Assembly (NCBI GenBank): GCA_021648085.1
Contig: JAKITS010000001.1
Span: 915,201-979,200 of the forward strand
Origin: Candidatus Magasanikiibacteriota bacterium
GTDB lineage: Bacteria > Patescibacteriota > Patescibacteriia > Magasanikbacterales > UBA922
Length of the DNA: 64,000 bases
Reading direction: 5' to 3'
Shown here: positions 99-39,751 of the stretch, in pieces
Numbering within the stretch: position 1 is the stretch's first letter
Layout: each line of letters starts with the position of its first letter
Made by a program: the position numbers and the translations under genes
The notes under the pieces: generated by a model
Seen by the model: the letters and a program-made list of their open reading frames with translations, nothing else
What the model was told of the DNA's origin: nothing
The model's database searches: none

Positions 99-258
99 GA
101 GACTATCTCAAAATATACTTTCATTATTAAAATTTCTAAATTTTGAGCGAGACGAAAAGAAAAAATTTTTGCTCAGCCTTAACTTCGGAAATATTTTTTC
201 TTGAAGTCGTAGCCAAAATTTTTATATTTTAATAGAAATGATGTTTTGAGATAGTCTT
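99..258 (+). repeat. Copy A of a conserved ~125-nt core element (three copies in this window, all + orientation). It is closed by a copy-specific perfect inverted repeat, agactatctcaaaa at 100..113 pairing with ttttgagatagtct at 244..257. It lies in the 5' leader of the SpoIID-like gene.
   Basis: Direct sequence comparison with 16742..16932 and 28282..28444. Shared core AAATTTCTAAATTTTGAGCGAGACAAAAAGAAAAAATTTTTG...CGGAAATATTTTTTCTTGAAGTCGTAGTCAAAAT...TTTTAATAGAAATGATGTT. Internal palindrome AGAAAAAAT/ATTTTTTCT. An extended -10 box TGGTATAAT sits upstream at 78..86. Confidence 0.75.
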
Positions 259-5826: not shown

Positions 5827-6546
5827 TTACTCAATGTAAGAAAATTCTTGATTTTCTTTTAATATAATATACCTTGTTTCTGTTATAGTTTTACCATATT
5901 TTTTTTTCGCCGAAATTGTAATTGTGTTTAAACCATTATTCAAATTTATGGTTTCATTAAACTCACCACTTTCTGTACTTTTAATATCTTTTCCATTTAT
6001 AAAAACATTTACCCCGGGCTTTGTTTTTCCGTGAACCTCCGCTGTGTATTCTTGGGTTATTTGACCATTTTCAGGTGAATAAACTATTAACGAAGGGGGT
6101 TTAAGTATGTTTTGTATTTGAAAACCCAAATAACTAAAAAAACCTAAAATAATTGCAGAAACCAAAATAATCCTTAAAATAAGTGGAAGGTTGTGGGACG
6201 AGTAGTTCGTTTTATTTTGTTTTGGTATTACTGAATTTGTGGATTTTTTTGTGAGAATATTATCTAAAACCCCTTCATTTATTTTAATCTCTAAATAATT
6301 CGCATATTTTTTTATAAAATTTTTTTTATAAATATCTGCAAATGGCAAACTATCTAAATCACCAGATTCTATAAGTTTTAGATAGTGTTTTCCAATTTTT
6401 GTTTTTTTTGATGCTGTCTCTAAGTCTATTTTTGAGAAAATCCTTTCATTTTTTAGGTTTGTGCAAATATCCAAAATGATATTCCCATCTTCTTGAGCAT
6501 CTTGATTATTACTGTTCTTCATCATACGGATTATCAATTTGCTCAT
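5827..6546 (-). CDS. RodZ-like membrane protein with an HTH (XRE-type) domain
   Basis: N-terminal region …KIGKHYLKLIESGDLDSLPFADIYKKNFIKKYANYLEI matches the RodZ HTH pattern. There is a single TM segment (LPLILRIILVSAIILGFFSYLGF). It overlaps the ftsK 3' end. Confidence 0.5.
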   Translation of the reverse strand: MSKLIIRMMKNSNNQDAQEDGNIILDICTNLKNERIFSKIDLETASKKTKIGKHYLKLIESGDLDSLPFADIYKKNFIKKYANYLEIKINEGVLDNILTKKSTNSVIPKQNKTNYSSHNLPLILRIILVSAIILGFFSYLGFQIQNILKPPSLIVYSPENGQITQEYTAEVHGKTKPGVNVFINGKDIKSTESGEFNETINLNNGLNTITISAKKKYGKTITETRYIILKENQEFSYIE

Positions 6547-16741: not shown

Positions 16742-16932
16742 AAAAAACCTTGTTAAGGGTCTATCTAAAAATACGCTTTCGTTATTTAAATTTCTAAATT
16801 TTGAGCGAGACAAAAAGAAAAAATATTTGCCCAGCCTAAGCTTCGGAAATATTTTTTCTTGAAGTTGTAGTCAAAATTTGGAGATTTTAATAGAAATGGT
16901 ATGTTTAGATAGGCCCATCAGCAAGGTTTTTT
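16742..16932 (+). repeat. Copy B of the conserved ~125-nt core element. Inner closing inverted repeat gggtctatctaaa (16758..16770) pairs with tttagataggccc (16904..16916). An outer terminator-like arm aaaaaaccttg…caaggtttttt also pairs.
   Basis: Direct alignment with copies A and C. Located between the rpoC stop and the 991-aa repeat-protein gene. Confidence 0.75.
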
Positions 16933-16990: not shown

Positions 16991-19966
16991 ATGAGAGAAT
17001 ATAATAGAGAACAAGAAAATGAAATTAAAGAATTGGCGGTGAGTGAGGCTGAGGAAGCAGAAATTCACACTGAATTAGAAAAAAAAGCTTATTTACAAAA
17101 AATAGAAGATATTTTCAAAGCACAAAAACTAAAAAAATATGAATATGAATATGAATATTATAATAATCTAAAAGATAAGTTGTTTAAAACTATTGATAAT
17201 TATGAAGGAGATAAAAATGATATTTATTTATATATTTTAGATAAAGAGGTGTATTTTTTTAAAGAATCTTTTTTATTTGACGAAAGAGTCCAGGATTTGA
17301 ATAGTACAGTTGCAAATAAACTTTGTGAGTTTAGTGGAGGTTATAATAATATTGAAAGTAATCGAGATAAATTTCAAAATTTAAATTATAAAGACATTGC
17401 AAACAGACTTATTAAATCAGACCAAGGTTATGTGCTTGCAAATAACCTAGAAAAATTCCAAGGTTTAGATCATCAAGACATTGCAAACAGACTTATTAAA
17501 TCAGACCAAGGTTATGTGCTTGCAAATAACCTAGAAAAATTCCAAGGTTTAGATCATCAAGACATTGCAAATAGACTTATTAAATCTAATAATGTATGGC
17601 CTTTAGTAAATAACCTAGAAAAATTTAGAGGATTAAACCATCAAGAATTAGCAAATAAACTTATTAAACCTAATAATGCTGAGTTTTTAGTAAAAAATTT
17701 AGAAAAATTCCAAGGTTTAGATCATCAAGACATTGCGAGCAAACTTATTGAAAATGCACAAATAGATTTGCTTATAAATAATATAGAAAAATTCCAAGGT
17801 GGTTTAAACACAGTATCACAAGGATTTCAACAAAATGCACAAACAAATTTTGGTGGTAAAAAAGAAGATTATAAAAAGATTTTTGAAAATCAAACTCCAC
17901 CGCACGATATGGAAAATCAATTATTAGAGGAATTTTTAAGAAAATATGGTAGTTTTTTACAAAATTTTAATGAATTAAAAGAAGCACAAAACATTTCCGA
18001 AGAAGATAAAAAATATCTTGAATCTGGAAAATTTGGAGAAGAATTTTTAATTCCTGTTTGTAATTCTCAAAGTGTTGGAAGTTTTCGGTTTTTGGATTTT
18101 ACATCAAAACTTATTGAATTTGAAAGAGTTATTTCAGAAAAAGATTTTTCTTTGTTAAGTGAAATTGCTATAAGACAAGGAATAAGAGCAATAGAAACAA
18201 TGGATTTTTTAACAAAACAACATGGTAAATACAATGAGTCATTATCAGAAAATAAAAACTTAAAAGAATTCATATTTTCTGGTTTACCAACTATACAAGA
18301 TATATATAAAGAATATTTATCAATTATAGAAGATGATTCACTCACAGATTTGGAGAGAAAAACAGAATTGAATAATCTTAAAGAAAAAGTTTTGAAAATA
18401 CAAGGGCAAATAATAAAAGGTGGAGGTGAAAATTCTGAAAATAAAGAAGATGAGAAAATGTTGGTTGGTTTAACTTACGATGTTTTTTCACCAGCTTCAT
18501 CTATAGGAAGGGCGCAATATGAAAACCTGTTGAGTAGAAGAGAGGATAGGACAAAAGATATCCCACAAGAATTAATGGATTTAAACAAAGAAACAAAAAT
18601 AACAGCTGTATATAAAAAATTTGGATTTTGGAATTTAAAAGAAGGTGAAAAAACCGACTTTACTTTACCAGAAAAATATACTGGTTTTATTGATAAAATA
18701 AATAAAACCGCAAAAGAGAAAAAAGAGGAAAATAAAGATTGGCGTGCGGAATATGTAAAACTTGCGCAACAACTTTTGCGAACAAAAAAAATTAATTGGA
18801 AAGAAAAAAATGAGGTTTTCCAAGATATTTATAGACTTATTGCAAGCGGAGCTGTTCCTGGAGTTGCAGGAATTGAAAAAAAGGGAGATACTTTTGAAGA
18901 TAACAAACAATTGTTAGATTTGGTTGGTGATAAATTTAAAGATGCTATTGATATTGCACTCAAAACATACAAAGAAGAAAATCCAGAAGAATATGAAAAA
19001 GATGTAGATATTGCTACAAAACTTGTGATAAATAAAAAAGCAAAAAAAGGAATAGTAAAAAGTATGGTGGGAGTTTTGAAACAGTATACTCGCGTGCCAA
19101 AACATAAAATATTTGATGAGGATACAGACAGGTTTGTAAATAGTAAAATAAAAAGAATATTGAAAAAATATAGTATTCATTTTGAAGGGGATATATTGAG
19201 TGAACTTGTAAATAATGAAAAATTGATGGAAAGTGTGGAGAAAATAGATGTCGAAATAGGTGAAAATGAAAAAACAGAAGATATAAAAGCGAGAATGGAA
19301 GCAGAGACAATGGAAATGGAACAAATTTTAAAAGAGTACTTTCAAGAAAAACTATTGAATGCAGAAATGAATCGTAATGCAGGAAAACTTTCTTCAGAAT
19401 TGGCTGGTAAATTTTTTGGTGAAGAAAAAAATAAACTGCAAGATGATATTTCTAAATATGAATTTGTAGAAGGTGGAGGTGGATCTGGAAAACCTTTGCG
19501 TTTGGAAATATCAAAACACAAATTGCACAGTGTAGCTGGTTTAAATATGGGAGTTTGTGTAGCAGTGGACGAAAAACTTTGGAACAAAGAAACTTTTATG
19601 AATGTAATTTTGTGGGACGATGAAATTAAGAAATCTCAGGGAGGAATGCATTTTGAAATTGTAGAAGATAAAGGTGAAAAGTATCTTAGTTTACCTGGAA
19701 TAAATCCAACTCCAAAATTACTTGCTTCTGCAAATCCAGAAAGTATATATGATCAAATGATAGAATTTGCAAAAAAATCCGCAAAAGCAATTGGTGCAAA
19801 AGGAGTGTTGATTCCTACTCGTGGAGAGATACATTCAAATCGTGCGGAAATACATAAAATTGTGCAAGATAAAAAATATCCAGTTCATAGTTTAGAAAAT
19901 AGTCATGACTTTTCATATAAACCTTATATTTATTCTTGGAAGGATACTTATTTTATAGAAGTATAA
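16991..19966 (+). CDS. Large K/E-rich hypothetical protein with about five tandem 28-aa repeats (DIANRLIKSDQGYVLANNLEKFQGLDHQ)
   Basis: ORF of 991 aa with 84-bp DNA tandem repeats. No signal peptide is apparent. Confidence 0.6.
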   Translation: MREYNREQENEIKELAVSEAEEAEIHTELEKKAYLQKIEDIFKAQKLKKYEYEYEYYNNLKDKLFKTIDNYEGDKNDIYLYILDKEVYFFKESFLFDERVQDLNSTVANKLCEFSGGYNNIESNRDKFQNLNYKDIANRLIKSDQGYVLANNLEKFQGLDHQDIANRLIKSDQGYVLANNLEKFQGLDHQDIANRLIKSNNVWPLVNNLEKFRGLNHQELANKLIKPNNAEFLVKNLEKFQGLDHQDIASKLIENAQIDLLINNIEKFQGGLNTVSQGFQQNAQTNFGGKKEDYKKIFENQTPPHDMENQLLEEFLRKYGSFLQNFNELKEAQNISEEDKKYLESGKFGEEFLIPVCNSQSVGSFRFLDFTSKLIEFERVISEKDFSLLSEIAIRQGIRAIETMDFLTKQHGKYNESLSENKNLKEFIFSGLPTIQDIYKEYLSIIEDDSLTDLERKTELNNLKEKVLKIQGQIIKGGGENSENKEDEKMLVGLTYDVFSPASSIGRAQYENLLSRREDRTKDIPQELMDLNKETKITAVYKKFGFWNLKEGEKTDFTLPEKYTGFIDKINKTAKEKKEENKDWRAEYVKLAQQLLRTKKINWKEKNEVFQDIYRLIASGAVPGVAGIEKKGDTFEDNKQLLDLVGDKFKDAIDIALKTYKEENPEEYEKDVDIATKLVINKKAKKGIVKSMVGVLKQYTRVPKHKIFDEDTDRFVNSKIKRILKKYSIHFEGDILSELVNNEKLMESVEKIDVEIGENEKTEDIKARMEAETMEMEQILKEYFQEKLLNAEMNRNAGKLSSELAGKFFGEEKNKLQDDISKYEFVEGGGGSGKPLRLEISKHKLHSVAGLNMGVCVAVDEKLWNKETFMNVILWDDEIKKSQGGMHFEIVEDKGEKYLSLPGINPTPKLLASANPESIYDQMIEFAKKSAKAIGAKGVLIPTRGEIHSNRAEIHKIVQDKKYPVHSLENSHDFSYKPYIYSWKDTYFIEV
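17393..17812 (+). repeat. Intragenic 84-bp tandem repeat array. Two copies are perfect (17393..17476 and 17477..17560) and about three are diverged.
   Basis: Identical 84-nt strings read directly. Downstream units diverge at both the nucleotide and protein level. Confidence 0.85.
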
Positions 19967-21895: not shown

Positions 21896-22142
21896 CTGTC
21901 AAAATAAGTCATTTTTGAGTTTTCTTTAAAATTATTATTAAAGTAGACTTCAGAGTGATTTATAGGCAGTTTTTGTTTGACAAATTATCATTTTTCTGTT
22001 ATAGTTTGATTATTAAATTACTGCTTTTTATAAGGAGTCTTTAACAAATATAATAATGTTATATTTGTCAAAGATTCTCTATTCAGAAGCGCGGACCTAT
22101 GTGGACATGCCCGCACAGAGCCCGTTAAAAGTATGCATGGTT

Positions 22143-23012: not shown

Positions 23013-23174
23013 ATTAATTATAGATGGTCTAGAAACAAATAGATCCCTAAAAAACTTTTTAAGTTTTTCGTTGAGGGTCTGTAGTATCTAGATCATCTCT
23101 TGGGAATATCAGCAAATACCATTTCAATAACGAAAGCGTATTTGGCGACATTCCCGTTAGAAAATAAAAATACT

Positions 23175-25519: not shown

Positions 25520-26965
25520 ATGTCGAAAAGAGAGGTTATTATAAAAACAAGAGATATCGCTGTTACTTATTTTATGGGTAAAAGCAATGAAGTAAAAGCT
25601 CTAAAAAAAATGTCTTTAGAAATTTATAAAGGCGAATTTGTTATTTTTTTTGGTCCTTCTGGTTGTGGAAAATCTACACTTCTTTATTCTATTGCGGGTT
25701 TAGAGCGTCAAGCTACGGGCGAGGCAATAATACAAGGTAAAGATGTTGTGAAGATGACTAATAAAGATTTGGAAAAACACTATCAAAAAACTATTGGTAT
25801 GATTTTTCAAGCTTTTTATTTAATACCTTCTCTTTCTGTTTTGCAAAATGTAATGATGCCTCAGATTGCTATTGGAGTAAGCCCAAAAAAAAGAAAAAAG
25901 AAAGCCTCAGATCTTTTAGAATATTTTGGAGTAGGACCTCAGTCAAGTAAATTGCCAACTGAGCTTTCTGGTGGACAGCAACAGCGAGTGGCTATTAGTA
26001 GATCTCTTGTAAATGATCCAGATATGATTTTGGCAGATGAACCTGTGGGAAACCTAGACTCAAAGTCTGCTGCCGATGTGCTTAGTTTGATTCAAGAGAT
26101 GAACAGAAAACAAAAAAAGACTGTTATTTTAGTAACGCACGATCCTACACATTTGGATATTGCAGACAGGGTTTTTTATTTGAAAGATGGTGCGTTAATT
26201 GATGTGAAAGAAAATAAGAATCCGCGCGTGATTCACAGAATTGGTAAGAAAACTAAAGAAGATAAAGAGCTTAAAAAAGAAAAAAGTAATCTAGAATTAA
26301 TATCTAAAATATACTCAAAAAATACAAAAAAAATAGATGGAATGCTTTTGGAATATAAAGCTAAAGAAATTTTACTAGAAGTTTTAACAGGAATGAATAG
26401 TAGGCAGCTTTTAGTTTTAGAGGAATACACAAAACAAATGATTAAAACAGGTGTAGATGGTAAGAGTGAAATGTATGAATATTTGGACAAAGATTTTGAA
26501 AATGGTGGTGCAGATTTGGATAGTCGTACAGCAAAAGAAATATCAAAAAAAGTAAAAGATATTGTTTCAGAAATGAGGATTGTTTCAGATTCAGATAAGA
26601 TAGAAACCTCAAAACCAATAGAAACATATGTAAAGCAGATAAGATATTATTTGTTGGAAACTTTTGATGTTCAAGTAAATAGTACAGAAAGTTTAGATGC
26701 AATTGACTATATTTTGAAAGACAGGGTTCAGGGTGTAACAGACAAAAAAGGTGTTTTTAAAATGTTAGATTTAGATTTGGAGCACGGTGGTGCGGGATTA
26801 AATAAAAGAACTGCAAAAAAAATTGCAAAACGATTAGAGTTGGTTTTACTTGGAAAATATACAAGAAATAAAAAACGAGAAAAAGAGTTATTAAAAGCAC
26901 AAAAAGAAGAAAGAAAAAAGCATAAAAAAGAAAAAGATACTAAAGAAAAAAAGAATAAATTATAA
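25520..26965 (+). CDS. ABC transporter ATP-binding protein (LolD/MacB-ATPase-like) with a ~250-aa C-terminal extension carrying two repeated modules
   Basis: Walker [10 protein letters not shown], signature LSGGQQQRV and Walker B ILADEP. The C-terminal extension contains repeated LD.D.E.GGA.L..RTAK(K/E)I.K modules and a KE-rich tail. Confidence 0.8.
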
Positions 26966-26968
26966 GCT

Positions 26969-28174
26969 ATGAGACTTTCCGACGCTTTGTCGTTATCCAC
27001 AAGAATGTTTAGAACAAGACCACTTAGAACATTATTAACAGTAATGGGTGTTGGTGTTGGTATTGGAACTGTTCTATTTTTGGTCTCACTTGGTTACGGT
27101 CTGCAAGACGCTGTATTAAGTCGTATTACAACGGCAGACGCTTTACTTAGTTTAGATGTTGCACCAGGAAGTTCAGAGTTAATTACTTTAAATAAAGATG
27201 TAATTGATAAAATAAAAAAAATTCCAAATGTGGAAGAGGTCAGTCCTGTGATTTCTGCTTCTGCACAAATAAGTTTAGAAAATTTGGTTGGAGACGGAAC
27301 AATGTATGCTGTCAAACCATCATACTTTAGATTAAGTGGAGTGGATACAATTTTAGGGGATTTATTTGAGAATAATACTGATGAAAATCCAAAAGCAATA
27401 GTTTCTTCCGCGGCTGTTCAGTTATTCAATATGAACCCAGAAGATATCTTAGGAAAGGAGTTTAATTTAAGTTTTTTTATTCCACGCATAGATGGCGAAG
27501 GTGTGGAGCATTTGGAAATTGTAGATAAGGATACAATGTATTCTATTGTTGGTGTTGTGGCTGATGACTCAGAAAGTTTTGTTTATATCCCTTTGGCTTC
27601 GGTAGAAAGTGTCGGAATAGAAAATTTTTTAGAAACAAAAGTAAAAGTCTCTAGTATAGAAGCAATGGACAATATACGACTTGAAATTGTGGAGATGGGT
27701 TTTTTTGTTTCTGCACTTAAAGATGTAATTGAAGATGCACAAAAAATATTTAGCATTGTACAATTAATTTTAGGTTTGTTTGGTTTGGTGGCACTTACTG
27801 TTTCTGCTATCGGAATGTTCAATACAATGACAGTTATGCTTTTGGAGCGTACAAATGAAATAGGTATTATGAGATCAATCGGCGTCACTCGTAGAAGCAT
27901 TAGAACTTTATTTATTGTTGAGGCAATGCTAATGGGATTTTTGGGTGGGCTTGGAGGTGTTGGTATTGGAATTTTAGGTGGAGAAATTTTTAATTTTATA
28001 ATAAATATTTTGGCAAAAAATTTGGGTGGTGAATCTGTTGACTTGTTTGTAAGCCCATTTTGGTTTATTGGTGTTATTATTTTTTTCTCAACTGTTATTG
28101 GTTTTATGACTGGTGTTTTTCCTGCCAGGCGTGCAGCCAAATTAAACCCATTAGATGCACTGCGTTACAAATAA
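26969..28174 (+). CDS. ABC transporter permease, FtsX/MacB-like
   Basis: N-terminal TM, a large extracytoplasmic domain and three C-terminal TMs with an FtsX-like topology. Directly downstream of the ATPase gene. Confidence 0.75.
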   Translation: MRLSDALSLSTRMFRTRPLRTLLTVMGVGVGIGTVLFLVSLGYGLQDAVLSRITTADALLSLDVAPGSSELITLNKDVIDKIKKIPNVEEVSPVISASAQISLENLVGDGTMYAVKPSYFRLSGVDTILGDLFENNTDENPKAIVSSAAVQLFNMNPEDILGKEFNLSFFIPRIDGEGVEHLEIVDKDTMYSIVGVVADDSESFVYIPLASVESVGIENFLETKVKVSSIEAMDNIRLEIVEMGFFVSALKDVIEDAQKIFSIVQLILGLFGLVALTVSAIGMFNTMTVMLLERTNEIGIMRSIGVTRRSIRTLFIVEAMLMGFLGGLGGVGIGILGGEIFNFIINILAKNLGGESVDLFVSPFWFIGVIIFFSTVIGFMTGVFPARRAAKLNPLDALRYK

Positions 28175-28205
28175 TTTTTTATATATAAAATTGCAAGTAA
28201 TTAAG

Positions 28206-28234
28206 TTGACAGAATACTTTATTTAGTATATAAT
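28206..28234 (+). promoter_or_regulatory. Consensus sigma70-type promoter (TTGACA, 17 bp, TATAAT) driving element copy C and tRNA-Leu
   Basis: TTGACA at 28206..28211 and TATAAT at 28229..28234, read directly. Confidence 0.6.
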
Positions 28235-28281
28235 ATACCCGCCCAATTTAGGTGGGTATTTAAAATAGGTTGTTTCAAGTA

Positions 28282-28444
28282 GGGAATAATTTTCAAAAAT
28301 GCTTTCCATTATTAAAATCTTTAAATTTTGAGCGAGACAAAAAGAAAAAATTTTTGACTAGTCATATCTTCAGAAATATTTTTTCTTAAAGTCGTAGTCA
28401 AAATCTAAATATTTTAATAGAAATGATGTTTGGAAATTATTCCC
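28282..28444 (+). repeat. Copy C of the conserved ~125-nt core element. Closing inverted repeat gggaataattttcaaa (28282..28297) pairs with tttggaaattattccc (28429..28444). It ends 9 nt upstream of tRNA-Leu.
   Basis: Direct alignment with copies A and B. The variable central loop contains the palindrome TGACTAGTCA. Confidence 0.75.
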
Positions 28445-28452
28445 ACAAAAAG

Positions 28453-28533
28453 CGGGTGTGGTGAAATTGGTATACACGCGTGGTTTAGGACCATGTGCCT
28501 TCGGGCGTGAGAGTTCGAGTCTCTCCACCCGCA
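28453..28533 (+). tRNA. tRNA-Leu (anticodon UAG), type II with a long variable arm. CCA is not encoded.
   Basis: Manual cloverleaf fold. Acceptor GCGGGTG/CACCCGC, anticodon loop TTTAGGA and T-loop TTCGAGT. Confidence 0.85.
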
Positions 28534-28538
28534 CTAAA

Positions 28539-28697
28539 ATAGATATATTTTAAAACAATCTTTTGTTGAAACTTTTAGATTTCGGCTGCAAAGTAAAATT
28601 ATCAAAAAACATTATGTATATAAAGCTTTTTTCAAATTTCACTTTTCGCTCGAAATCTAAAAGTTGCACCTAAAAGCTGTTTCAAAATATATCTATA
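28539..28697. repeat. Roughly 160-nt imperfect palindrome (MITE-like or cruciform) immediately 3' of tRNA-Leu
   Basis: Left arm tagatatattttaaaacaatcttttgttgaaacttttagatttcg. The reverse complement of the right arm is tagatatattttgaaacagcttttaggtgcaacttttagatttcg. The central roughly 65 nt is also partly self-complementary. Confidence 0.7.
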
Positions 28698-28700
28698 AAT

Positions 28701-28973
28701 ATGGAGAGTATAAAAATTTTTGCAAGTCAGATAAATCCAAATATAGATACTATAGATTTGCACACAGAAAATTCTTTGTATGCTTCTATGGAAAAATTAG
28801 ACCAAAAATTATATTCTTTGTATCAAGATGAAAAAGAATATTGTAGGATTATTTTTGGGATTGGAACTGGTAAGCTTAAAAATGAAACTTTAAAATCTTT
28901 AGAAAAAAACCCACTAATTGAACATGTTGAAATGGATGAAAACGGTGGAAGTTGTATCGTATTCTTTTCTTAA
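28701..28973 (+). CDS. Small Smr-domain-like protein
   Basis: IDLHTENSL…IIFGIGTGKLK…GGSCIVFF follows the Smr pattern (DLHG…IhGkG…GG.G….V.l). Confidence 0.45.
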   Translation: MESIKIFASQINPNIDTIDLHTENSLYASMEKLDQKLYSLYQDEKEYCRIIFGIGTGKLKNETLKSLEKNPLIEHVEMDENGGSCIVFFS

Positions 28974-29007
28974 AATTATTAGTTATCCACTGTTATAAGA
29001 AAAGTAC

Positions 29008-29036
29008 TTGACAGCTTTTTTTAAATAGTGTAAAAT
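29008..29036 (+). promoter_or_regulatory. rRNA promoter candidate (TTGACA, 17 bp, TAAAAT) upstream of the 23S rRNA
   Basis: TTGACA at 29008..29013 and TAAAAT at 29031..29036. Followed by a leader containing a processing-stem-like hairpin. Confidence 0.5.
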
Positions 29037-29312
29037 GTGGAGCGTTATCGAAATTTAAAAAATAGTCTCACTACAGAAGTTAATCAAGTCGTTAATTTCT
29101 GTGGTCAGATTATAAGAGTCTCTAAATAAACATCTCAGCAGATGACTTATTTACTTAGAGAATCCAACTGATAGCACATTACAATTCAAGAGTCTTAATA
29201 GAGATATAAATTAAAATAATCTTTATAGCGATACAAAGTTATTTTAAATATATCTAAAAGAAAAATTGTAAGTAAAAAAATATTATATGCGAAAATACTA
29301 TTATGTGTTTTC

Positions 29313-32255
<2,943 letters not shown>

Positions 32256-32466
32256 GAAAGCACATAGTAGTTTTTTACTATAATAAATTCACATTTGTGT
32301 ATTTATATTACAAACATTTTTCTAATTATTTGAGGTTTAAATTGAATAGATTTTGCCAAAAAATTAGTTAGGACTCTTATTTGTGAAACAAAAAAGCAAT
32401 ATTTTGTTGATTTAAGTAGATTTATTTCTATTTAATTCTAGATTTTTTACAATTTAGTTTACAATT

Positions 32467-32573
32467 CCTGGTGTCTTTTGTGACGAGGGTACACCTGTTC
32501 CCATCTCGAACACAGCAGTTAAGTTCGTTTACGCCGATGATAGTCGAAAGGCAAAAGTAGGTAGGTGCCAGGT
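32467..32573 (+). rRNA. rrf: 5S ribosomal RNA
   Basis: CCTGGTG…CCCATCTCGAACACAGCAGTTAAG…GCCAGG with terminal helix pairing. The ends are approximate. Confidence 0.75.
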
Positions 32574-32753
32574 ATTGTAAACTAAATTGAAAATCTTAGA
32601 GCTACAAGATATTGTTTTTTTAATAGAAAAATACAACTTAAATGCTGTATTTTTTGTTTTTTAAATTATATTTTTATTTTTTGCTTGGCAAAATGGATTG
32701 TTTATGATAATGTTTGATATTCTTTAGACAATTCATCAACAAAAAAGGAGAAA

Positions 32754-39661: not shown

Positions 39662-39734
39662 GTGCCTGTAGCTCAGGGGTTAGAGCACCACGCTTATAAC
39701 GTGGGGGTCGATGGTTCAATCCCATCCAGGCGCA
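39662..39734 (+). tRNA. tRNA-Ile (anticodon UAU)
   Basis: Manual cloverleaf. Acceptor GTGCCTG/CAGGCGC (one U-G pair), anticodon loop CTTATAA and T-loop TTCAATC. An extended -10 box TGGTATAAT lies about 60 nt upstream. Confidence 0.75.
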
Positions 39735-39751
39735 CAAATTAATTTCTACAA

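Follow-up and report, generated by a model that had tools for sequence, protein, structure and literature searches.

The window analyzed here is a 64,000-nt stretch of DNA from a Candidatus Magasanikiibacteriota bacterium (contig JAKITS010000001.1, positions 915,201 to 979,200), and within it an imperfect palindrome of 158 nt, which we call D, fills most of the space between a tRNA-Leu gene and a short open reading frame (ORF) encoding an Smr domain (smr). D seems best described as belonging, as a diverged member, to a superfamily of mobile elements that are ~160 bp long, non-coding and palindromic over their whole length, that occupy intergenic DNA in this genome and its congeners, and that resemble MITEs, the miniature inverted-repeat transposable elements. 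We call the main family of this superfamily F, and we place the probability of this reading at roughly 0.7. D would then probably be an element of an ordinary kind that is old and decaying. The superfamily is apparently new for the phylum Patescibacteria while being of a known kind; a full-text search of the literature returned no description of MITE-like elements in Patescibacteria.

Geometry and folding of palindrome D

An inverted-repeat search of the window places D at 28539–28696 and identifies it as the longest inverted repeat present. Its arms (28539–28615 and 28620–28696) comprise 77 nt each, are 78% complementary without gaps, and enclose a 4-nt loop. Counted by position (n = 79), the pairing consists of 61 Watson-Crick pairs, 4 G.T, 5 A.C and 9 other mismatches, and it runs inwards from the very ends, with the outermost base at 28539 paired to 28696. 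A preliminary description of this DNA had reported a palindrome of ~160 nt directly after tRNA-Leu, which is borne out; it had divided the structure into ~45-nt arms and a separately self-complementary centre of ~65 nt, and while the complementarity holds, the separate parts do not, as D is one continuous imperfect hairpin. The element is AT-rich, its termini read ATAGATAT...ATATCTAT, and it is directly followed by AAATATGG. The distances given earlier are also correct, with D beginning 6 nt past the tRNA-Leu discriminator base (28533 according to Rfam; ARAGORN places the end of the tRNA at 28534) and ending 4 nt ahead of the smr ATG at 28701. The identification of the downstream ORF as Smr-like likewise stands, since the 90-aa product scores 27.2 bits against the Pfam Smr model, for which the cut-off is 25.7. 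D itself is non-coding, the sole ORF that touches it being one of 55 aa that runs out of frame into smr.

Folding of D is far more stable than that of its shuffled counterparts in every form considered, with −45.7 kcal/mol (z of −8.9) for the plus-strand RNA, −63.5 kcal/mol (z of −11.6) for the minus-strand RNA and −35.3 kcal/mol (z of −8.8) for the DNA, and 0 of 200 shuffles as good in each case. The DNA value makes extrusion of a hairpin or cruciform thermodynamically plausible, so this part of the earlier suggestion of a cruciform-forming element can be kept, with no accompanying pointer to a function. The minus strand folds better by 18 kcal/mol, and we considered D as a minus-strand RNA gene for this reason and rejected it; the mismatches are balanced (4 G.T vs. 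5 A.C), so the energy gap between the strands is no evidence for a minus-strand or antisense RNA.

Searches for known signals in D were negative. At the Rfam 15 gathering threshold only tRNA, 23S and 5S families pass in the whole window and D matches no family, while in E-value mode D retrieves only generic long-hairpin plant MIR models that score far under their cut-offs. A terminator scan of 28000–29300 returned zero terminator-like sites, D lacking a G+C-rich stem with a run of T after it, and a promoter scan of D gave nothing on the plus strand and a weak 9/12 match on the minus strand.

Family F and the resemblance of D to it

F is a set of dispersed palindromic elements of ~160 nt, represented in the window by three full copies (A, B and C) and two short forms. 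Copies A and B are ~90% identical to C over the inner ~110 nt, and each of the three folds into one hairpin with a z between −7 and −13. Across the copies collected, length ranges from 158 to 165 nt (161 nt for the copy on contig L009). A search with a 26-nt core pattern in CAZHUL01, a congeneric metagenome-assembled genome (MAG) that is ~80–84% identical to the window in shared genes, yields at least 18 copies on 17 contigs, many of them at contig ends. The ends of F are sharp (GGGACTGTCGCC...GGCGACAGTCCC), with G-rich outer termini of the form GGGAC...GTCCC, and the flanks of different copies are unrelated to one another.

The most strongly conserved part of the F hairpin is an internal loop whose 5' side is GAGCGA(GAC) at about position 47, with GAGCGA present in 20 of 20 full-length copies, and whose 3' side, at about position 110, reads GTAGCC in 14 of the 20 and GCAGCC in one; we regard GAGCGAGAC/GTAGCC as the invariant internal loop of the family. 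Aligning 19 F copies with D gives a consensus hairpin of 55 pairs in which 95.4% of cells are paired, vs. 40–55% when the partners are slid. Both sides have changed in 29 of the 55 pairs (15.4 ± 2 in shuffles, with 0 of 500 shuffles reaching 29), and wobbles on the GAGCGA strand number 44 G.U vs. 15 A.C, both counts being inflated by the shared descent of the copies. The centre of the element is near-invariant, and it is the terminal ~20 nt that co-vary between copies through complementary changes. Relative to the flanking genes, ~7 copies lie in sense and ~6 in antisense orientation.

F is demonstrably mobile. Perfect 5-bp direct repeats flank 6 of the 19 full-length copies, where permuted flanks lead one to expect 1.1 and 0 of 2000 permutations reach 6; these duplications are AT-rich and include ATTAT, AAAAG, TTGTA, AACTA, CTTAT and TAAAA. 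There is also a filled site with an empty counterpart, in that contig L096 reads TTTCTT-TAAAA-[F]-TAAAA-tRNA-Leu and contigs L131/L145 read TTTCTT-TAAAA-tRNA-Leu, the two genomes being 94–97% identical to one another. Judged from these sequences, F is a dispersed, mobile, MITE-like palindromic element. The L096 copy combines divergent ends with a perfect duplication and an empty counterpart in so close a genome, which may be due to there being more than one active subfamily, to arm homogenisation, to slippage that excises precisely, or to recognition through shape or internal loop. Another copy, on L006, has no counterpart at ~51.1 kb of the window.

The similarity of D to F is weak by score and specific by position. 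An nhmmer profile of F matches the minus strand of D from 28669 to 28564, colinear over profile positions 31–138, with E = 0.04 and 10.1 bits, which is a weak match next to the 106–169 bits of true F members. Because of this weakness the score was checked against decoy palindromes that keep the composition, pair types and mismatch count of D, and it was reached by 0 of 2000 column-shuffled, pair-preserving decoys (maximum 6.7) and by 0 of 2000 dinucleotide-preserving decoys (maximum 9.4). When D is the query, its best non-self nhmmer matches are F copies in reverse orientation. Both are single end-to-end hairpins of nearly the same length (158 nt for D vs. 161 nt for F), and D is colinear with 19 F copies. 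The two halves of the internal-loop motif also fall where F would have them, GAGCGA at position 46 of the D minus strand vs. 47 in F, and GYAGCC at 108 vs. ~110, for which the chance of both halves occurring at those positions is ~1e-7. In the whole window the pattern GAGCGA...(50–70 nt)...G[CT]AG[CT]C has four occurrences and no more, namely A, B and C on the plus strand and D on the minus strand. Copy C and D flank the tRNA-Leu gene on either side, inverted relative to each other.

It is conceivable, if doubtful, that the F/D superfamily is a hairpin-dependent mobile element for which recognition goes by shape or by the invariant loop in which GAGCGA faces GYAGCC, with D as a second lineage and with the arms regenerated or homogenised at each copying, e.g., by fold-back synthesis or through a single-stranded intermediate. 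If true, this would explain the co-varying ends around a fixed centre, the recent-looking copy with divergent ends and the wobble bias of one strand, and it would place such elements in a ~1-Mb symbiont-type genome that has no visible transposase. The fixed core and co-varying ends of F pose a small, testable puzzle on recognition and copying.

Several observations on individual F sites can be added. Between the leader hairpin and tRNA-Leu lies a spacer of ~20 nt that holds an F copy both in the window (28283–28443) and in L096 (717–879) and is empty in L145; the two copies differ in their ends and, slightly, in where they are inserted, so that either the spacer is a hot spot hit twice independently or a single old insertion was later lost precisely. 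Targeting of tRNA genes as a rule was considered and dropped, as beyond the tRNA-Leu site just one other F copy adjoins a tRNA: in the congeneric MAG, contig L004 carries a copy (5980–6143) 12 nt upstream of tRNA-Thr (5895–5968), echoing the position of C upstream of tRNA-Leu. Beside copy B lies an ORF of 991 aa (16991–19966, plus strand) that we took as a candidate transposase and set aside when it matched nothing in Pfam or NCBIfam. The sister lineage described below lacks this ORF and has ~130 nt in its place. The ORF lies between two copies of the rpoC terminator hairpin, the first of which holds copy B in its loop, and it looks like an inserted gene.

The tRNA-Leu/smr site in related genomes

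The closest relatives, reached through searches with Smr, the tRNA anchor and PNPase, are contigs L145 (L131 and L023 in one 21-kb contig) and L096, whose coding regions are ~80–84% identical to the window at the nucleotide level. This sister lineage keeps the order promoter, tRNA-Leu, smr, 23S, and D is absent from L023, L096, L131 and L145, so the conservation in relatives that the preliminary description named as favouring a local role is not found. Flanks common to the D-less relatives show ~77–92% identity, and the stretch from smr to 23S ~91%. The sister tRNA-Leu ends ...CCGCACCA, with CCA encoded, and only (A)GAAAATATTCTAAGT stands before the smr ATG, which begins 15–16 nt past the CCA (L145 8390–8500; L096 600–720, minus strand). 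This arrangement would imply a tRNA-mRNA co-transcript with a very short leader, for a gene that lies just upstream of the rRNA genes and encodes a putative nuclease of Smr type. As the sister lineage keeps tRNA-Leu and smr together and has no D, D is dispensable there for tRNA-Leu maturation and smr expression, which argues against a conserved processing or terminator role. The two corresponding suggestions of the preliminary description, a tRNA-processing element and a terminator, are not upheld, the latter also for want of a terminator-like stem and T run. For annotation, D should not be read as a conserved tRNA-processing or terminator signal.

Comparison of the two lineages also outlines a possible history. 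The sister spacer GAAAATAT-TCTA-AGT aligns with 28683–28700, that is, with the last 12–13 nt of the D 3' arm and the 4-nt flank, and an AAAATA direct repeat (28536–28541 and 28684–28689) bounds the indel in the window. An F-like element may have entered the short AT-rich spacer 3' of tRNA-Leu by transposition, perhaps with duplication of TAAAA, and later decayed. The sister lineage would either never have had D or, more parsimoniously, have lost it, with replication slipping past the hairpin from one AAAATA repeat to the other, a route that would leave the 12-nt remnant in its spacer. Great age of the element would fit the distance of D from F, its somewhat poorer pairing (~85–88% vs. 95% in F) and the absence of sister copies in the DNA searched, and a gain of D in the lineage of the window instead of a loss in the sister is possible. 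We also considered the encoded CCA as a means of polarising the indel and found it weak, since the tRNA-Ile of the window likewise has no encoded CCA. More distant Magasanikbacteria, reached through the FtsX-like protein (65–70% identical), have the order ABC, FtsX, 23S, 5S with a 455–607-nt spacer, from which tRNA-Leu, smr and D are all absent. One 562-nt metagenome contig (L024 1–562) encodes a C-terminal half identical to the sister Smr, joined to an unrelated N-terminal half and preceded by unrelated DNA; either the allele has been rearranged or the contig is a chimera of assembly, and it was set aside as uninformative.

In the window, the promoter at 28206 would drive transcription of D together with tRNA-Leu and smr, being the probable start of a transcript that also covers copy C. 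Since D lies between a promoter-driven tRNA and an ORF that begins 15–16 nt from the tRNA in the sister lineage, we infer that co-transcription is almost certain. The transcript of D would form an RNA duplex of ~75 bp that has to be removed in tRNA 3' maturation and that would bury the 4 nt just upstream of the smr start. Cleavage by RNase III would be the obvious fate of this duplex, which is a plausible substrate (cf. the Correia repeat enclosed elements, CREE, of Neisseria; PMC2649163). Nothing points to selection for this arrangement. D seems more likely to be carried along and tolerated, to the disturbance of smr expression, than to be a signal built for the purpose.

A number of points weigh against this account of D. 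It lacks the GGGAC...GTCCC termini of F, the absolute score of its similarity to F is low (10 bits, E = 0.04), and no second D-type copy was found by blastn (word size 7) or nhmmer in the 903 kb searched, which took in 64 kb (6.5%) of the 984-kb source genome and ~140 kb from congeners. The sole candidate target duplication, TAAAA/TAAAT (or CTAAA/ATAAA), is a 4/5 match that ~7 of 19 permuted flank pairs equal, so it is not significant in AT-rich DNA, and no transposase domain was detected in the window ORFs examined (Pfam, NCBIfam). No outgroup with the tRNA-smr block was found, the close PNPase homologues forming one cluster that belongs entirely to the sister lineage, and with two lineages and no outgroup a gain of D in the window lineage is not separable from a loss in the sister. 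The transcription of D, its cutting by RNase III and the effect on smr are, moreover, inferred. The viral contigs gave no exact match to the two-arm consensus of D. Lacking the F termini, D is filed as a diverged relative or separate subfamily and not as F proper. The MITE reading put forward in the preliminary description is retained, in modified form, with respect to kinship with a mobile, multi-copy family and to presence or absence between relatives; of the features that it proposed looking for, further copies of D were not found in the 903 kb searched, and D has no TA/TTA target-site duplication.

Among the alternatives, we consider it unlikely that D, whatever its origin, is a lineage-specific cis-regulatory hairpin, acting as RNA or DNA, that is now under selection. 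Such a hairpin might be an RNase III site that parts tRNA-Leu from the smr mRNA, an occluder of smr translation, or a barrier to transcription between the tRNA and smr, and the tight placement of D between the two genes, its great stability on both strands and the ~77% of arm positions that are still Watson-Crick paired despite far divergence from F would all suit this role. MITE-like CREE can, in addition, bind RNase III and change the expression of neighbouring genes (PMC2649163; review PMC10969869). The closest relatives, however, manage the same gene order with a 15–16-nt spacer and no D, the element contains neither a terminator-like stem with T run nor a plus-strand promoter-like site, and as a single sequence it offers no covariation evidence.

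Less probable again is a family of structured non-coding RNA genes, comprising D and F, that has been copied around the genome with the hairpin selected as RNA. The two-sided changes in 29 of 55 F pairs, the 95% of paired cells, the 44 to 15 excess of G.U over A.C on one strand and the invariant internal loop are what such a family might show, but the covariation and wobble counts owe part of their size to common descent of the copies, and the wobbles of D are balanced at 4 vs. 5. The copies, moreover, occur in both orientations to genes and match nothing in Rfam, and their fixed 5-bp duplications and sharp inverted ends indicate DNA transposition.

Least probable of all is that D is unrelated to F and formed de novo from local sequence that was duplicated in inverted form or copied through a template switch, its resemblance to F being convergence of AT-rich hairpins: its outer 3' arm (AAAATATATCTA) does resemble the ancestral-looking sister spacer and has an exact complement in the 5' arm, as expected of inverted duplication of flanking DNA, and D is single-copy in the DNA examined and lacks the F termini, but just ~12 of 79 arm positions are derivable locally, leaving ~65 nt per arm with no local source, and convergence would not be expected to give the shared length, colinearity and GAGCGA/GYAGCC positions (~1e-7; 0 of 4000 decoys).

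Relation to known elements and the surrounding locus

Taking MITEs as elements of ~30–300 bp with no coding capacity (generic definition in PMC4133298; review PMC10969869), F and D resemble them in being small (158–165 bp), AT-rich, non-coding and intergenic, with inverted-repeat ends and stable stem-loops predicted for their transcripts. F is also multicopy and has short direct repeats at its insertion sites. Such repeats fade with age in MITEs, and the 4/5 match at D would fit this behavior. F and D differ from MITEs in forming a single hairpin over their full length, where MITEs have an unrelated core between two short terminal repeats, in that the centre of F is fixed and its terminal ~20 nt variable, which is the reverse of the usual pattern, and in that D is single-copy in the DNA examined and the window ORFs examined gave no cognate transposase for either.

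The CREE of Neisseria (PMC2649163) and elements such as ERIC and RUP (PMC2229807, PMC3049150) are, like F and D, palindromic and intergenic, ~100–160 bp long, with a conserved core. As in F, full and internally shortened forms exist and positions differ between close strains. Elements of this type are co-transcribed with their neighbours, and for CREE, binding or cleavage by RNase III has been reported (PMC2649163). There is no sequence relationship between these elements and F/D, whose host is a Patescibacteria genome of ~1 Mb, and for the promoter creation, IHF binding and RNase III cleavage of CREE no counterpart is established in F/D. CREE duplicates TA, whereas F duplicates 5 bp.

A 5-bp AT-rich duplication is shared by F (ATTAT, AAAAG, TTGTA, AACTA, TAAAA) with the Tn3-derived MITEs known as TIMEs, for which AAATT, AAATA and AATAT are described; TIMEs are 262 bp long, have ~40-bp terminal repeats (38–40) matching Tn3-family transposons, and are usually single-copy and found mainly on Pseudomonas plasmids (PMC4133298). 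No Tn3-type transposase was matched in the window ORFs examined. The ends of Tn3-family elements begin with a G run, and F begins with GGGAC. REPINs, which are paired REP hairpins mobilised by RAYT transposases, are likewise multicopy and intergenic and tend to carry matching mutations in their arms; the GTAGCC of F contains a conserved GTAG, and the window shows no RAYT gene. REPINs are shorter than F and move by way of an HUH/RAYT enzyme without target-site duplication, whereas F makes 5-bp duplications.

Taken with its relatives, the window thus depicts a streamlined Patescibacteria genome of ~1 Mb with an active-looking palindromic mobile family at ~1 element per 10 kb, whose members rearrange promoter-gene spacers and terminator loops from one close relative to the next. 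Annotation should allow for ~6 related repeats in the window (Table 1), and such repeats break the MAG assemblies of relatives, leaving copies at contig ends.

Table 1. Coordinates of D, of F copies and of features at the tRNA-Leu/smr locus (window positions unless a contig is named)
Feature	Position	Strand	Remarks
F copy A	99..258	+	~90% identical to C over inner ~110 nt
F copy B	16757..16916	+	in loop of rpoC terminator hairpin; terminator uninterrupted in sister lineage (L131)
F short form	22030..22082		outer stem only; in L131/L145, full-length F copy at the orthologous site
F short form	23101..23155	-	only the outer stem; lies immediately upstream of pnp; L131 and L096 lack it
Sigma-70-like promoter	28206..28234	+	TTGACA-17 nt-TATAAT, 12/12 consensus; kept in sister lineage
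F copy C	28283..28443	+	between promoter/leader hairpin and tRNA-Leu gene
tRNA-Leu(UAG) gene	28452..28533	+	no encoded CCA; CCA encoded in sister lineage
AAAATA direct repeat, left copy	28536..28541		bounds indel vs. sister lineage; overlaps candidate duplication TAAAA at 28535-28539
Element D	28539..28696	-	strand set by homology to F (GAGCGA-bearing strand is minus)
GCAGCC, 3' half of internal-loop motif in D	28584..28589	-	D minus-strand position 108; ~110 in F
GAGCGA, 5' half of internal-loop motif in D	28646..28651	-	D minus-strand position 46; 47 in F
AAAATA direct repeat, right copy	28684..28689		within D 3' arm; from here to 28700, alignment with sister tRNA-smr spacer; candidate right duplication TAAAT at 28696-28700
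Smr-domain ORF (smr), 90 aa	28701..28973	+	78% identical to sister-lineage protein
F copies outside the window	L001-L017; L096 717-879; L131 3628-3789

The locus as a whole runs pnp, ABC ATPase, FtsX-like permease (end at 28174), promoter, short leader hairpin, C, tRNA-Leu, D and smr, and continues downstream with a second promoter (29008–29036), 23S (29312–32258) and then 5S. The ABC-ATPase/FtsX-like pair occupies 25520–28174 between pnp and the tRNA-Leu promoter; in the sister lineage pnp is directly followed by the promoter, and in the distant relatives the pair stands directly 5' of the 23S gene. The 23S-5S unit is apart from 16S and has its own promoter block (window 28983–29040: TTATCCAC...CTTGACAGC, 17 nt, TAAAAT; also L020 6244–6300 and L023 330–400), which is conserved as far out as Magasanikbacteria with an FtsX-like protein of just 65% identity. 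The 5S rRNA gene (32467–32573) is enclosed by a 26-nt inverted repeat (32446–32471 and 32568–32593) that is 92% complementary and probably forms a processing stem.

Elsewhere in the window there is a tRNA-Ile gene with anticodon TAT (UAU) at 39662–39735 on the plus strand, which is kept in the congeneric MAG (L001 3154–3227). In bacteria AUA is usually read by a modified CAU anticodon, and a tRNA-Ile with UAU is thus unusual.

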